A stretch of DNA of 64,000 nt from Eledone cirrhosa (taxonomy: Eukaryota), in the NCBI GenBank assembly GCA_964016885.1, contig OZ024746.1:88474001-88538000 (forward strand), in the 5' to 3' direction. The position numbers and the translations under genes were made by a program. Positions 14,269-61,548 of this stretch are shown piece after piece (position 1 is the first letter of the stretch; each line of letters starts with the position of its first letter). The notes beneath the pieces were generated by a model. It had not been told where the DNA came from and did no database searches. It saw only the letters and a program-made list of their open reading frames with translations.

Positions 14269-14306
14269 CCTTTTGAAAGGCAGAAGAACTGCGAAACCGG
14301 TAAAGG
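14269..14306 (+). ncRNA. Minimal type I hammerhead motif, PLE-type (U3:A8 variant; G at position 9)
   Basis: cctt TTGAAAG GCAG-aagaa-CTGC GAAA CCGG TA^aagg: 4-bp stem I, 4-bp stem II, palindromic stem III ACCGGT, GUA triplet. Confidence 0.68.
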
Positions 14307-14546
14307 AAACAAATATATATATATATTTTTAAAGAAAATAAGACTCCAGTTGCATTTTCGATTTCTTCTCTTTTTCTTTATACTTTCACTCGTGTAGGAC
14401 ACCTCGGTTATTTTTCATTTTATAAAAATACCTCACTTTCTAATATATATATATATATATATATATATATATATATATATATATATATATATATATATAT
14501 ATATATATATATATATGTTTGCATGAAATATGCGTCCTGAATATAT

Positions 14547-15617
14547 TGTTATACTTTGGGAGGGTCATTTTGCCAATAAGAAACACACGCACCAGTGCTT
14601 TCACTCCAATTTATTATAAATTAAATTCATAAATTTAAGAATTTATGAATTTCCGTTTGGTTAGTCCCACAACCGGACGGTTGTTCATATATTGTCAAAG
14701 TTCTTTCGTCACACATTCTTTGACCTCTTCAGTGACTGGGGATTATTCTCTTTGTTTTGTACCTCTCCTTTGTTCTGTACTACGCCATCTTGTGTTTGTG
14801 TGTGTTGTGTGCTTAGTTTGCGCATGTGTTACATCCGGGTGTCTGTGTGTGTTTTTATTTGTTTATTTCTTTGTTTATTGACATGTTACTGGTTGTTTGT
14901 TTGTTCTATATGTGTGTGTTTTCATTTTTCCTTAATTGTAAGTTGTGATGTTGCTATTTAATTTTGGCTGAAGTTCATTTATGTTTATTTCCTCTGTGAT
15001 TTGTCTAATCATTGCGTCTTTTCTGTGTGTAGATATTATTTTTATTTCTATGTTCTCTAATTTGTCCTTATGTTCTATTTTAGCATGTTGGTGGAGTACT
15101 ATCAATCTGTTCTATCTTGAAGCTCTCGCCAGTGTTCATTTAATCTGTCTCCTCTACTACGAGCTGTCTCACCTATGTACACTATATTCTCATATTTACA
15201 TTGTCCTTCAGTACATCTTATGCTATATACTATGTTTCGAGTTTTACTGTTAATATGGGGGCTTAGTTTACAGATTTTTCATTTCTTATCTATACAAGGG
15301 GGTCTTTCAAAAAGGCTATGTATTACTAATAAGTGTTTTTATGGAGGTAGTGGCTTTTCTACTATCTTAATATTTAGTTTAAGTTTATCTACGGTCCTTC
15401 TAAATTTGTAAACTAATTCACCTCTATGGGTTGTATTGTATTAGCTTACAGATTTAGAACATTGACAATATATGAACAACCGTCCGGTTGTGGAACCAAC
15501 CAACCAACCGGAAATTTATAAATTCTTAAATTTATAAATTTAATTCATAATAAAGTGTAGTGAAAGCAATTGGTGCGGTGTTCCTTATTGGCAACTTGAC
15601 CCTCCCAAAGTATAACA
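14547..15617. mobile_element. Non-coding inverted-repeat element with ~160-bp TIRs, TGTTATAC...GTATAACA termini and an internal HHR
   Basis: 14547-14704 is an imperfect reverse complement of 15456-15617. Flanks ATAT and GTAT. TG-rich interior with no recognisable protein. Confidence 0.85.
14694..14736 (-). ncRNA. Minimal type I hammerhead motif
   Basis: gtca CTGAAGA g GTCA-aagaatgtg-TGAC GAAA GAAC TT^tgac: all core nucleotides present, 4-bp stems I and II, 2-bp stem III, weak CUU triplet. Confidence 0.65.
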
Positions 15618-15676
15618 GTATATATATATATATATATATATATATATATATATATATATATATATATATATATATA

Positions 15677-15790
15677 TCAGGGGGGGACATAGTGTTATAA
15701 TAATGCCAGAAAAAAAAGTAAAAGCGCATCCCTGTTTCGCTATGGTTGGTTTTCGCTTCCGTACATTTTATATCCCTATAGTTAATATAT
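15677..15790. mobile_element. Terminal fragment of the GGAGGGTCAT terminal-motif family
   Basis: GGGGGGACATAGTGTTATAATAATGCCAGAA...GGTTTTCGCTTCCGTAC resembles 44890-44930 and 52003-52080. Confidence 0.55.
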
Positions 15791-57200: not shown

Positions 57201-59891
57201 TACACGTACAATAAAATATTCTAAGGTTTGATTTAATCATTTATAAATATAATAATTCATAATCGAGTACCCGAATATGATATTAGGGACTCATAGTGGA
57301 AGAAAAAATATACGTAGAAGTATATTCCTTTTATGTTGATTAATTTTGGACAGTGGGTTTCACCATCATTCGTAATATATAGAATATCATTTTGCAAACG
57401 TAACATTGAATTTAATGCTGGCAATTGTGCCAGTGTGTGTTTTATTCGTGTATATCATAGCATGAATGCCAAGACGAGAGCGTTTCAAATACAGAATTTA
57501 TTAACATATAAGGGGAAAAATCGAAATTTAAATGTAGTATCATTTGATATGGTACATGCAACGGTAAGATGAGAGATCGTAGGATATCTATTAAAATATG
57601 AAGCTACAACTGTGAAATCTTGAGCATCCAGAATATATAACCTTGTTCTCTAGACAGTATTTGTCACTATTACTCTTAATTTTGCTTTTTGAGTAAACAG
57701 TTTACAGTTAATTTTCATCGGGACATGTTGAACAAGCTGGTCTTCAAGGCTAACCAAGCAGACGTACACATTATGATGCCATTGTAGTAAAGGGCCTTAA
57801 TAAGTATATTCAATCTCGCCCTGCCGAATGGAGCTGCCCTATAATTTGTATATATATATATATATATATATATATATATATATATATATATATATATATA
57901 TACGAATAGAATGAAGAAATAGGAGAAATAAGTACCACAAAGAAATAAAGTGTTAAGATTATATCTAATAGTAATAATTGTGCATTGTAAGTGTGTGCAA
58001 ATATAATATATTACAGTTAGGTGTGAAACTATATATATAAATAAATATATATATATATATATATATATATATATATATATATATATATATATACGGGAAT
58101 ACGTGTATGTGCATGTGTTTATGCATGTGCTTGAGTGTGCATATGAAGCATGAAATCAGCCAATTACATCTGTTATGCACCATCGATATTTTTCTCACTT
58201 CTATTGTGAAAATGAGAAAGTCAGCGGATTTGTGTGTATAGTGACTGACTATTCCGATATAATTGGCCTGTTGCCTCTGTGGCTCTACGTGGTGTATCGA
58301 TTTTTGAAATATTCTACTGCGATAGTGAACTGCTGATATCAACATTTCATTATTCTGGATCAATGTCATATTTATTTTAACCCCAAGAAGACGAATGAAT
58401 TTGCGGGTATTGTAGAATAGTCAGTTATGCACTGTACAGTTATTATCAATTATTATTCCATACACTTTCTATAAGTACGGGAAAATCGTGTTCATTTTAA
58501 GAACAAGACGAAATAATATTGCAACTCGTAATTGATGTATAAATGTATGCACATATGTAATTATTCTTTTTCACGGAACACACACACATGCACGCACACA
58601 CACGCACACGTACACACACATATATACCCATACTTCCTCACACACCCACATCCACACATACATACACATACACACATACATACTCACAAACAAATTCACA
58701 CACACACACATTTACATACGGCCATACACAATCAAACCCACTCACAAACTGACACATTTTGTTTGAAAAACGCATATTCACCATCATCTGTCCACTCCAC
58801 ACACAACATATACAAAATGTTGTATTTAACAGCTATACCCTTGCTGTTTCGACCATGAAGAGAAACCATATTGTATCATCACTGTCCCCTATTAACAACT
58901 GTGGCACGAGTCGTCATACGCCAGTCATGTCTTCATCGCATCTTGTACTAGTGTCCCCGTTTTATAAAAGAAATGGCAGTGAATTAATTTTGTGTTTTCT
59001 TTTATTGACCACATGTTCGTTTGTTCCTTCAAGATCTACATCCTTTTGCTTGTTAAATTGTTAAAATTGAAATCCGTGTTTCAATATATTATACATAGAA
59101 ACGCACACTAAGTTATGTTAATAGTTATGTAAACATACTTGTTGCATGCAAATGGTTTCCTCACACACAGAAGTTATGCTGTATATTAAAGTATACCTGT
59201 CTAAAGACATCAATAGCTTTAAAACCTCTCTATATAGTCCCTAATGTTAACGCACCCAGTATCTATCCTTTATTAACTGACATTTAAAAATAACTGTCCC
59301 TCTTTGTTTGTTCGCTTCACTTATACTTGCATACATTTCTGCTTCATTCAGCATTCAACTACTCTAACATCTCCTATGCACAATTTAATATAGTGCAAAC
59401 GATGGTTCTTAAAGCAGTTAGTTTTTCTCAATCGATTCCTATAAACAAAGATTGAGCGCTGCTATCAAACACAGAATTATTTGCACCGATTAATCGTAGA
59501 ATTACTTTGTTATGACGCGAGGTAATTGTCGCTCGGAATTTGATTTTAACCTGAAATCATGTTTATATAGTTATATTTTCTTACAGTAAAAATGTATATA
59601 CGGCAATAGAATCAATAAAAACAAACGAATTAGAAATATGATTCGTTTTCCATTTCACTACCACAATACAATTACTGATATAACCAAACAAGTAGTTGAA
59701 TTGATAAATCAAAAGAGAGACAACAAAAGTATGTTTGTATAACCCTATTTTATGACGTGTTTTGTGATCCATTCCCAAGCCTTCTTTTGTCTCAAAACCT
59801 AACGTCTCGTGGAATGTTCTTAAGCTTCATGAATCAATACTGTGTTCTGTGAACAGAATCTGCGACTAATTTAGACAAAACTTGGAATGAT

Positions 59892-60146
59892 CTGGAGAAA
59901 TATAATTGTTTCTACTTTTGACACAAGGCCAGCAATTATCCAGTACATTACTGGTACTTTATTTTATCGACCCCGTAATGATGAAATGCAAATTTAACCT
60001 CGACGGGATTTGAACGGAAACCGTAAAGAGACGTAACTATGCTAGAAATCATAGCGTTAAGCCCTCTACACCTGGAGAAATATAATTGTTTCTACTTTTG
60101 GCACAAGGCCAAACATTACTGGTACTTTATTCTGGAGAAATATAAT
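59892..60146 (-). mobile_element. SINE plus SINE fragment bracketed by three copies of a 15-bp target
   Basis: CTGGAGAAATATAAT at 59892, 60072 and 60132. Confidence 0.92.
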
Positions 60147-61496
60147 GCATGCTCGTTTGTGACATACACGTATTAATAACCCATTTCTAGGGAATTCAAG
60201 CGACAATATCCCCATTATGTCATAAGCATACTACATGTTGCTGAGTGCACTGTTGTTCATCTAATACTCAGCTCTTTGAAAGGTGAAAGGGCTTATCACA
60301 ATTATTCATCTTTTACATATCAAGTAACAATTGTTACGTGTCTATTTAGATGATACTGTGTGAAGAAATAATTATGTTGTATTCTTTTCTGTTGTAGTTC
60401 GAACTATAATGTAGACAAACTCCACCTTTGTGTAGGTAGATGATGTTTATACGAAGAAGTGATTATGTGCTATGGAATGCATATGTGCATGGATCATCAC
60501 TTGACAAACATTAAAAGCAAGTTCACATCCAGGAAATTAAAAACGATAGAAAGTACAGAATGTCTGCCTTTATACGGAGAGCATGTATTTTTGAAACAGA
60601 AAATCCGTATTCAATATCTTGTCTAACAATATATTTAAACAATCCTTTGGTTTGTAGAAACGTTACTAATGTGATAGGAAATTCTTGTGTCTAATTCAAT
60701 ACGGTTTGGGACAGTTAAAATTGAATAATTTCTGCAAATATATCCGTTCGTTCTGAGAATTCATTCACAGGATTTACTAGATACAGAATCCTAATAACCA
60801 TAATGAAAACATTATAATTTCCCTCCATATATTTTATCCCAACTAATTACCATATGATTTAGTGTGTCATACCAAAAGGTATGAAATAATGGAACGGTAA
60901 ATGTTATGTTGTATGGCCAGGTAGATATACAGGAAACAAACATCTAATTGGCAAGTATAGTAAACTTTCAAAAGAGGGAGGCTGCAATGATCTATATAAT
61001 TTCTGATGTGATGAGAATGTTTCACATTCGTACATTTGTTGCAGTCGACCTTTTCGACAGTACTTGCTTCTTAGCCTTTAGCTTTTAACGAGCAGCTGAA
61101 ATTCGTTTATGCAATAAACTTATATTCCCCTTTACGGAATTTGATTCTACGTCTGTATAGATTGTTACATTAATAGGAATAGTGTGTGCACATTATGTCT
61201 AAGGAAACTAATCTGTCTATCAGAGAGACGTTGCTGTCAACATTCAGGATATTGCAGTATTATGTAAAGTATTTCCCACATTATATGCATGTTATTGACT
61301 TCCGTGAGAAAAGACGTCTGAATCCTCTTATTTAAATTTGTTGAGGCATGTATAAGTATATATATATATATATATTAAATTGTTAAACAATATTCAATGG
61401 TTATGTCAAATAATGAGCTTTACACTAGATTGGAAGCGCTCAACGGCAAAAATAATTTTCTGGAGTTATTAATATTAAAATATAAGTATTAATAAA

Positions 61497-61548
61497 ATTT
61501 GATTATACATATTTCGGATGTACAACAGTACGTCCTCATCAGACAAAT
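61497..61548 (-). ncRNA. Type I hammerhead motif
   Basis: atttgt CTGATGA GGAcGTAC-tgtt-GTACaTCC GAAA TATGTA TA^atcaaat: intact core, 7/8 stem II, near-palindromic stem III, bulged stem I. Confidence 0.78.

Follow-up and report, generated by a model that had tools for sequence, protein, structure and literature searches.

Hammerhead motifs beside (TA)n tracts in Eledone cirrhosa as probable ends of Penelope-like elements

Introduction

A 64,000-nucleotide stretch of the Eledone cirrhosa genome (GenBank assembly GCA_964016885.1, contig OZ024746.1, positions 88,474,001 to 88,538,000 of the forward strand; the window) carries many short motifs that look like minimal hammerhead ribozymes (HHRs), and the question is what these motifs are and why they lie close to (TA)n tracts. 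A sequence-only reading had described them as a dense set of mutually unrelated hammerheads and had proposed that many seemingly unique islands between TA tracts are 3' stubs of several TA-targeting families of Penelope-like elements (PLEs) or retrozymes. The motifs are very probably minimal type I hammerheads in the pseudo-long-terminal-repeat (pLTR) ends of at least seven endonuclease-bearing (EN+) PLE families and in one retrozyme-like unit, and target-primed reverse transcription is the likely route by which these elements entered (TA)n.

Hammerhead census and association with (TA)n

The window represents 64 kb of a 3.0-Gb genome, has a GC content of 33% and contains 99 (TA)n tracts of at least 12 nt. 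The hammerhead descriptor scores the stems, tolerates one defect per stem and accepts stem III as a cis hairpin or as a palindrome; it replaced a strict descriptor without stem defects that missed most window sites. At a score of 22 or more, eight perfect-core type I hammerheads were found, against a mean of 0.17 (maximum 2) in 100 local dinucleotide shuffles with microsatellites kept, and palindromic stem III, described earlier as recurrent, occurs in seven hammerheads against a mean of 0.04 (maximum 1). The type I minimal core (3:8 pair, G12-A13-A14, A15.1:U16.1, H17) is present, perfectly so in the seven palindromic cases at 54187(+), 25336(-), 53537(-), 61542(-), 6534(-), 7060(-) and 22897(-), the last of which is absent from the sequence-only reading. 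Both C3:G8 and U3:A8 cores occur, as that reading had noted. The eighth match, at 28860(+), has no homologue among the fetched loci and is probably due to chance.

The same search was applied to a 400-kb genome sample, made up of 40 10-kb stretches placed at round coordinates of 21 large contigs, with 15 shuffles as control. It gave 38 matches, 30 of them palindromic (shuffles 0-2 and 0, respectively), and in the palindromic matches found with one core mismatch allowed the Watson-Crick 3:8 pair is kept in 40 of 42. The sample density of 6.1 per 64 kb, compared with 8 in the window, means that the window is typical of its genome and not especially dense. The genome-wide load is likely about 2.8 x 10^5 hammerheads (Poisson range 2.0-3.9 x 10^5), extrapolated from 400 kb in which matches cluster and which is not length-weighted.

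Expected closeness to TA was taken from random non-microsatellite positions within the same stretches. In 28 of the 38 sample matches the predicted cleavage site has a TA tract no more than 250 nt away on its 3' side (8.5 expected; equalled in 0 of 2000 draws), whereas only 12 have one at that distance on the 5' side (8.1 expected, p 0.09, not significant). Of the seven window motifs, 5 have such a tract on the 3' side (p 0.0075 against 1.5 expected) and 2 have one on the 5' side (1.3 expected). The enrichment is genuine and polar, so the earlier statement that the motifs lie near (TA)n stands for the 3' side only. A similar hit rate in shuffled sequence, or no enrichment beyond tract density, had been named as outcomes that would speak against the sequence-only reading; given the shuffle excess and the TA enrichment, which holds in both the sample and the window, neither refutes it. 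The window has 44 islands between TA tracts; in 19 of them, repeats found in 100 other loci make up over half of the length, and 9 carry a listed hammerhead site.

Pairing was examined in an alignment of 17 subfamily hammerheads, picked from 25 variants each seen at least twice. Paired cells amount to 94.6% (31-51% in slid-partner controls), and two-sided changes occur in 16 of 22 helix pairs, with support for helices I and II; this evidence is partly circular because the rows were chosen by the descriptor. The computed stem III self-duplex ranges from -2.2 to -10.5 kcal/mol, with none for the G type described below. Weighing against these results, isolated HHRs fold weakly (z +0.6 to -2.6). 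The window motifs are real, predicted hammerheads, and cutting of RNA by them is a prediction.

A C at the fourth position of stem II (alignment A1, column 20) is invariant in all 17 aligned hammerheads, which are of the Hydra type. It is unpaired in the modelled structure, is a candidate for a tertiary contact and is lost in the window copy at 25286. A candidate at 45497 was rejected, since it matches only half of the core. Of 195 Rfam matches in the window, the 150 listed include no hammerhead and only microsatellite-driven miRNA noise.

Families and parent elements

Judged by their sequences, seven window families, named A to G, are pLTR ends of PLEs with open reading frames (ORFs), four of the Hydra clade (A, C, D, E) and three of Neptune/Nematis type (B, F, G). 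Window copies are 89-95% identical to ORF-linked copies. Complete pLTR-ORF-pLTR units were found for three families: C (L139, 4148 bp, with a hammerhead at each end), F (L437 and L438, about 4.2 kb, carrying an inverted copy) and E (L441, 3113 bp). Family A is linked to an endonuclease through 1.95 kb of 94% colinear sequence, and longer copies of B, D and G likewise run into PLE ORFs. Reverse transcriptase (RT) with a GIY-YIG endonuclease at the C terminus lies upstream of the HHR-bearing end in A, B, C, D, F and G; for the E parent the RT part alone was read. The EN+ PLE layout is present, with tandem pLTRs (L139, L437/L438, L441), an inverted 5' copy in 39 head-to-head pairs and an optional tail. 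Genome searches returned candidates, which are not copy numbers, for A (54187; 953), B (14273; 1863), C (25336; 2007), D (53537; 715), E (61542; 2549), F (22897; 848), G (14732; 1620) and the retrozyme-like family C2 (6534/7060; 2688). Exact HHR copies number 10,850 for a 34-mer of B and 5,579 for a 33-mer of F, with 0 for reversed controls. With seven families tied to RT or GIY-YIG ORFs and one retrozyme-like, the proposal that many islands are 3' stubs of several TA-targeting families is supported.

The Hydra motifs RW[KR]A, DKT, CxCX5C, CxxC and CxH are spread across the A, C, D and E parents, and no single broken parent copy shows all of them. An RWK-like motif together with DKT is found in C and E, DKT in A, and neither was recovered in the broken D copies; the CxCX5C linker, absence of CCHH, and CxxC/CxH around E and N are seen in A, C and D and were not recovered for E. 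The parents of B, F and G have a CX2-5CxxC linker with the internal cysteines of CCHH, and DKG and GxKF in F only; these motifs place them with Neptune and Nematis taken together. In Pfam searches the F parent matches RVT_1 and GIY-YIG, and the B parent matches GIY-YIG. Several points count against the parentage given here: Pfam recognises neither RT nor GIY-YIG in the ORF pieces of the Hydra-type families A, C, D and E, whose assignment rests on motifs and weak tblastn hits, and the parents of C2, of a further family G2 and of the family of the 20901 site were not traced. A Nematis label for A, C, D and E was dropped, as the motifs in section 11 of PMC8557442 point to Hydra.

C2 repeats a non-coding 526-nt unit in tandem, bears inverted arms and has an HHR in consecutive units. 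No ORF is linked to it, and PLE protein matches occur at 2 of 19 C2 loci. By its structure it is a retrozyme-like unit, for which a circular RNA form is putative.

The motifs are not mutually unrelated, as had been supposed. Those at 52167 and 52552 are arms of one insertion (85% identical, inverted), and those near 6500, 7030 and 7350 belong to another. The sites at 14694, 52167/52552 and 18883 share one hammerhead type, and four families have Hydra-clade parents.

A PLE fragment in the window itself (63-1023) was considered as a hammerhead parent and rejected, since its relatives, among those displayed, have no canonical HHR just 3' of the endonuclease. It is a broken PLE 3' part (RT thumb and GIY-YIG, minus strand) with an inverted piece and 10,834 genome candidates. 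In its relatives the element runs out into microsatellite-rich sequence, near which no canonical hammerhead was seen; family A HHRs beside two of them (L062, L070) are read as nested stubs because the A parent is Hydra-type. In family F an upstream ORF overlaps the RT ORF in another frame (L437 3328-4755 and L438 3238-4665, minus strand), an arrangement that resembles the overlap expected for a programmed frameshift. Two other hammerhead families (L136, L154) have, upstream of the HHR, a TATA-like box and several octamers of the ATGCAAAT type, an arrangement reminiscent of snRNA-type promoters.

Element ends

Family 3' ends adjoin (TA)n at fixed points. The distance from the core to the first TA is 93-102 nt in 28 of 32 loci of A, 94-114 in 21 of 25 of C, 70-75 in 11 of 23 and 226-278 in a further 10 of D, and 177-194 in 17 of 20 of E, all at best-match loci selected by queries containing the end. 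Copies of B and F were taken in genome order from pattern searches (101 distinct copies of B and 82 of F, drawn from a subset of 100 places listed per family), and two alternative 3' ends were found in each, at 110 and 172 in B and at 156 and 194 in F. Single ends are long in 32 of 56 B and 31 of 50 F copies (57-62%). Head-to-head pairs combine one long and one short end in 21 of 22 cases in B and 13 of 17 in F, the remainder being short with short, with one arm truncated; a further B pair, cut by the locus edge, was excluded. Two long ends were never paired (0 of 39). The arms of one locus mostly share subfamily alleles, which differ between loci.

The 5' ends of these copies pile up at a wall 46 to 38 nt before the hammerhead core (38 of 101 in B, 55 of 82 in F), compared with 5 and 2 ends at -75 to -47. 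The hazard per nucleotide at the wall is 0.072 in B and 0.18 in F, against 0.003-0.006 in neighbouring stretches of both, an 11- to 68-fold rise. Among long copies, 33 of 37 in B and 17 of 19 in F have a TATA-type box 29-33 nt upstream of the wall; the spacing is 30-31 nt in both families, and the box is retained in both F subfamilies. The pile-up behind the TATA box and the absence of long-with-long pairs therefore suggest that the stubs are likely uncut cDNAs that began at an internal RT start and reached the transcription start, and most B and F stubs likely end at that predicted start and are not random 5' truncations.

Proposed mechanism and alternatives

Following what is described for related elements (PMC11167929, PMC8557442), the GIY-YIG endonuclease would nick (TA)n, and RT would begin at one of two internal RNA sites downstream of the hammerhead. 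From the present analysis, both nicked strands would prime on the same RNA, one per RT site, and such twin priming would leave a long arm and a short arm whose junction is the meeting point of the two cDNAs. With a predicted RNA start 30-31 nt past the TATA box and about 40 nt ahead of the hammerhead, many cDNAs would run off the 5' end of the RNA after 150-240 nt and give stubs. These run-off cDNAs would derive from the pLTR nearest the RNA start, and their ends would anneal or join (TA)n. As the cleavage site lies inside every stub, the templates would be uncut or re-joined; the palindromic stem III is predicted to permit cleavage as a dimer only.

On this scheme the genome would hold about 3 x 10^5 hammerheads, above the published counts found, because PLE biology builds stubs in: the ribozyme would follow the cap by 40 nt, RT would begin 150-240 nt downstream, and PLE proteins acting as a dimer would prime the two nicked strands of (TA)n on a single uncut RNA, with a different start for each. 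The chances of this fuller account being right appear about even.

Some observations weigh against a start-site origin of the wall. The transcription start, placed at -42 in B and -44 in F relative to the core, is a prediction, and a G, as templating by a cap would leave, stands at the 5' junction in 3 of 9 TA-joined copies that begin at the predicted +1. Families A and C of the Hydra clade gather around -70/-72 at CATATG with no TATA box 30 nt upstream (small numbers), which may put them outside the start-site reading. In B and F the wall also coincides with near-palindromes, and these could favour fold-back on their own.

The last two of these points are shared by the strongest alternative, in which the stubs are ordinary random 5' truncations and the pile-up comes from short near-palindromes favouring fold-back or microhomology joining and not from the 5' end of the RNA. 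Many wall copies fold back around ACAGT/ACTGT in F or CAGATGTG in B, and palindromes at inverted junctions are read as self-priming in PMC3846280. Copies joined straight to (TA)n, however, stop at the wall too (10 of 44 wall copies in B, 11 of 59 in F), and the 30-31 nt TATA spacing recurs in two different families and survives the divergence of the F subfamilies. Truncation is possible, and the less favoured of the two explanations.

It is doubtful that the stubs are self-propagating elements like SINEs or retrozymes, re-transcribed and re-copied with the flanking (TA)n standing in for the lost TATA box. The 5,000-11,000 exact HHR copies per family would suit such elements, some wall copies have (TA)n immediately before the predicted initiator, and C2 is a non-coding tandem unit to which no ORF is linked. 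B stubs and long copies nevertheless share the same subfamily alleles in like proportions, with no stub-only alleles among 53 wall and 35 long copies, which makes the B stubs look like by-products and not an independent SINE. Stub-only alleles seemed at first to exist in F and were rejected as an artefact of the reference subfamily: they mark a second subfamily, which also has long TATA-bearing copies. The match of arms within loci and their difference between loci speak against self-propagation as well, and it fits C2 only.

That the motifs are chance matches in AT-rich, microsatellite-rich DNA, close to TA merely through tract density, is hardly credible even with 99 tracts in the window and most single motifs folding no better than shuffles, and it is refuted for the main sites by the excess of palindromic and total matches over shuffles in window and sample, by a 3'-only TA enrichment that persists with tract density controlled and by thousands of exact HHR copies, though it may hold for 28860 and for a site at 47586.

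Sites in the window

The individual sites in the window are as follows. Positions 14269, 25286, 54179 and 61497, under which four of them had been listed, are stem I edges. Among the motifs listed as foldable, those at 25286(-), 53500(-), 54179(+) and 61497(-) have perfect cores.

The four Hydra-clade families are represented as follows. The family A stub (54118..54285, plus strand) has its HHR at 54179-54249 with stem III ATGCGCAT and TA on both sides; this copy keeps both the core and the invariant C of stem II, and cleavage after H17 is predicted at 54241(+). The family D 3' piece (53451..53911, minus strand) contains an HHR at 53502-53541 with a U3:A8 core and stem III ACGTACGT, and its short-tail end lies at (TA)n. 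The family E 3' piece (61375..61827, minus strand) has an HHR at 61497-61548, stem III ATATGTAT and a long-tail end at (TA)n. The family C 3' piece (25243..25660, minus strand; HHR 25286-25341, stem III ATATATAT) is an exception in not adjoining (TA)n, being joined to the 3' half of another hammerhead family. In this chimera the family C end is fused to the 3' half of a retrozyme-like unit that is a sister of C2 (25050-25243, minus strand); the C2-sister part (25050-25242) is 95% identical to L071, and the junction is a short TAAG repeat.

Of the Neptune/Nematis-type families, the B stub occupies 14207..14442 (plus strand), with a TA tract on both sides and a long tail. Its HHR (14269-14306; core 14273(+)) has U3:A8, stem III ACCGGT and an A9-to-G change particular to this copy, family B otherwise having A9; an inverted piece covers 14207-14236 and the main arm starts 36 nt before the core. 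The family G copy (14543..15617, minus strand) carries an inverted arm at 15456-15617, a decayed, frameshifted GIY-YIG remnant at about 14950-15437 (minus strand) and a minimal HHR (core 14732, minus strand) with an extra base after A9 and a short stem III. This motif, listed as 14694(-), passes a relaxed minimal descriptor only (1 match against 0.04 in shuffles). The 3' junction of the G copy (14517-14545) is an inverted duplicate of about 28 nt at 14119-14147, which flanks a TA tract 370 nt away. The family F stub (22690..22991, minus strand) has an HHR at 22864-22902 with stem III AGTACT and predicted cleavage at 22869(-), and an inverted arm at 22936-22991.

G2 is a two-armed head-to-head insertion at 51920..52790 with cores at 52205(-) and 52556(+) and TA tracts at both ends. 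It has the G hammerhead type. Contrary to their listing as foldable, 52167(-) and 52552(+), its two motifs, fail both descriptors through a weak stem I; they are members of a repeat family of which one copy (L144) passes.

The C2 insertion (6286..7409, minus strand) comprises one full and one partial tandem unit of about 526 nt and has its 3' end at (TA)n. Its hammerheads at 6459-6539 and 6985-7065 (minus strand), earlier described as decayed, are intact, the second with predicted cleavage at 6990(-), and its inverted arm (7219-7409) holds a truncated inverted HHR from 7357(+). Other sites were correctly called decayed. At 18883..18930 (plus strand, core 18887) a G-type HHR lies downstream of an old G-type endonuclease remnant, 67% identical to the endonuclease region of the 14694 type, and 20885..20965 (plus strand, core 20901) is a decayed copy whose relatives elsewhere have an intact HHR (11 matches) with stem III ACGT. 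The hammerhead-like stretch at 47586..47635 (plus strand) is unconfirmed because one core base is absent and no homologue was found among the fetched loci.

Other repeats

Non-LTR pieces with RT and RLE-type motifs and a Pfam RVT_1 match, presumably R2/R4/Dong-like, lie at 31905-36836 (plus strand), with a (TAA)n tract at 31975-32059. A TA-flanked fold-back family (8176-8362, 51746-51879, 52899-53039) occurs in 17-21 of 100 sampled loci and has no hammerhead in canonical order. Further TA-flanked repeat families without a canonical hammerhead are at 20447-20775, 24432-24638, 24751-25022 and 20110-20206. A SINE-like repeat of about 195 nt, tandem and dispersed, is found at 1493-2034, 29024-29572, 46673-47063, 49750-50432 and other places.

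Relation to known systems and significance

The hammerheads of metazoan PLE pLTRs (PMC4209133) are likewise type I minimal HHRs with a small palindromic helix III, U3:A8 and an extra base after A9, found mostly as single motifs from truncated PLEs, in opposite-strand pairs 100-700 bp apart and in many families per genome. Unlike the 2,000-9,000 HHRs per genome given there, about 2.8 x 10^5 are estimated here; stem III palindromes reach 8-10 nt, and many Hydra-type motifs have A10.1:U11.1. Hydra-clade PLEs (PMC8557442) agree with the present ones in RWK-like and DKT motifs, the CxCX5C linker without CCHH, CxxC/CxH, a canonical HHR and (TA)n targets. The supplement of that paper (files S1/S2) has one octopus Hydra family, Hydra-1_Obim, with (TA)n preference and an HHR, from whose listed motif the stems here differ. 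Hydra elements are described there as "generally <3 kb", whereas at least four Hydra families exist here, with units of 3.1 and 4.1 kb.

Neptune/Nematis EN+ PLEs (PMC8557442) and PAc (PMC11167929) share with the present elements a C-terminal GIY-YIG with a CX2-5CxxC linker, pLTRs, an inverted 5' copy, an optional tail from two internal RT starts, AT-rich targets and an uncut RNA template. PAc nicks AT-rich DNA on both strands, its two internal RT starts define the tail, and its template is uncut RNA, protein being required for its hammerhead to cleave (PMC11167929). The tails here, in contrast, are about 40-160 nt, with strict pairing of long and short ends, and several families share 2-5 TA letters between end and target (seen, not counted), whereas PAc is reported to start without homology. 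Penelope RNA starts in the upstream pLTR, and the internal promoter of D. virilis Penelope is TATA-less (PMC2377424), unlike the TATA box here; pLTR TATA/Inr motifs, one-sided tails and palindromic junctions have been described (PMC3846280). C2 resembles metazoan non-LTR retrozymes, proposed to be moved by PLEs (PMC7229834; bioRxiv 10.64898/2026.07.22.740005), in being tandem and non-coding with a single type I HHR in each unit, and differs from them (about 170-400 nt) in its 526-nt length, PLE-type inverted arms and (TA)n ends.

The largest published count found is up to 120,000 retrozymes in axolotl (PMC7229834), and Rfam gives 235 hits in giant squid (PMC6962438). No cephalopod hammerhead census, and no start-site stubs or twin priming in PLEs, were found in the literature outside subscription journals. 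Since the PLE class, its hammerheads, tails and TA targeting are already published, the window is ordinary for its genome, and its families are new families of a published element class. They add young families with near-intact ORFs (copies of B are 99% identical to each other, and F has complete units of 4.2 kb), a first estimate of how many ribozymes a genome of cephalopod type carries, and sharp predictions on the position of the PLE RNA start and on the priming of both strands. If these are true, stub ends would map the transcription and RT starts of dozens of PLE families from DNA.

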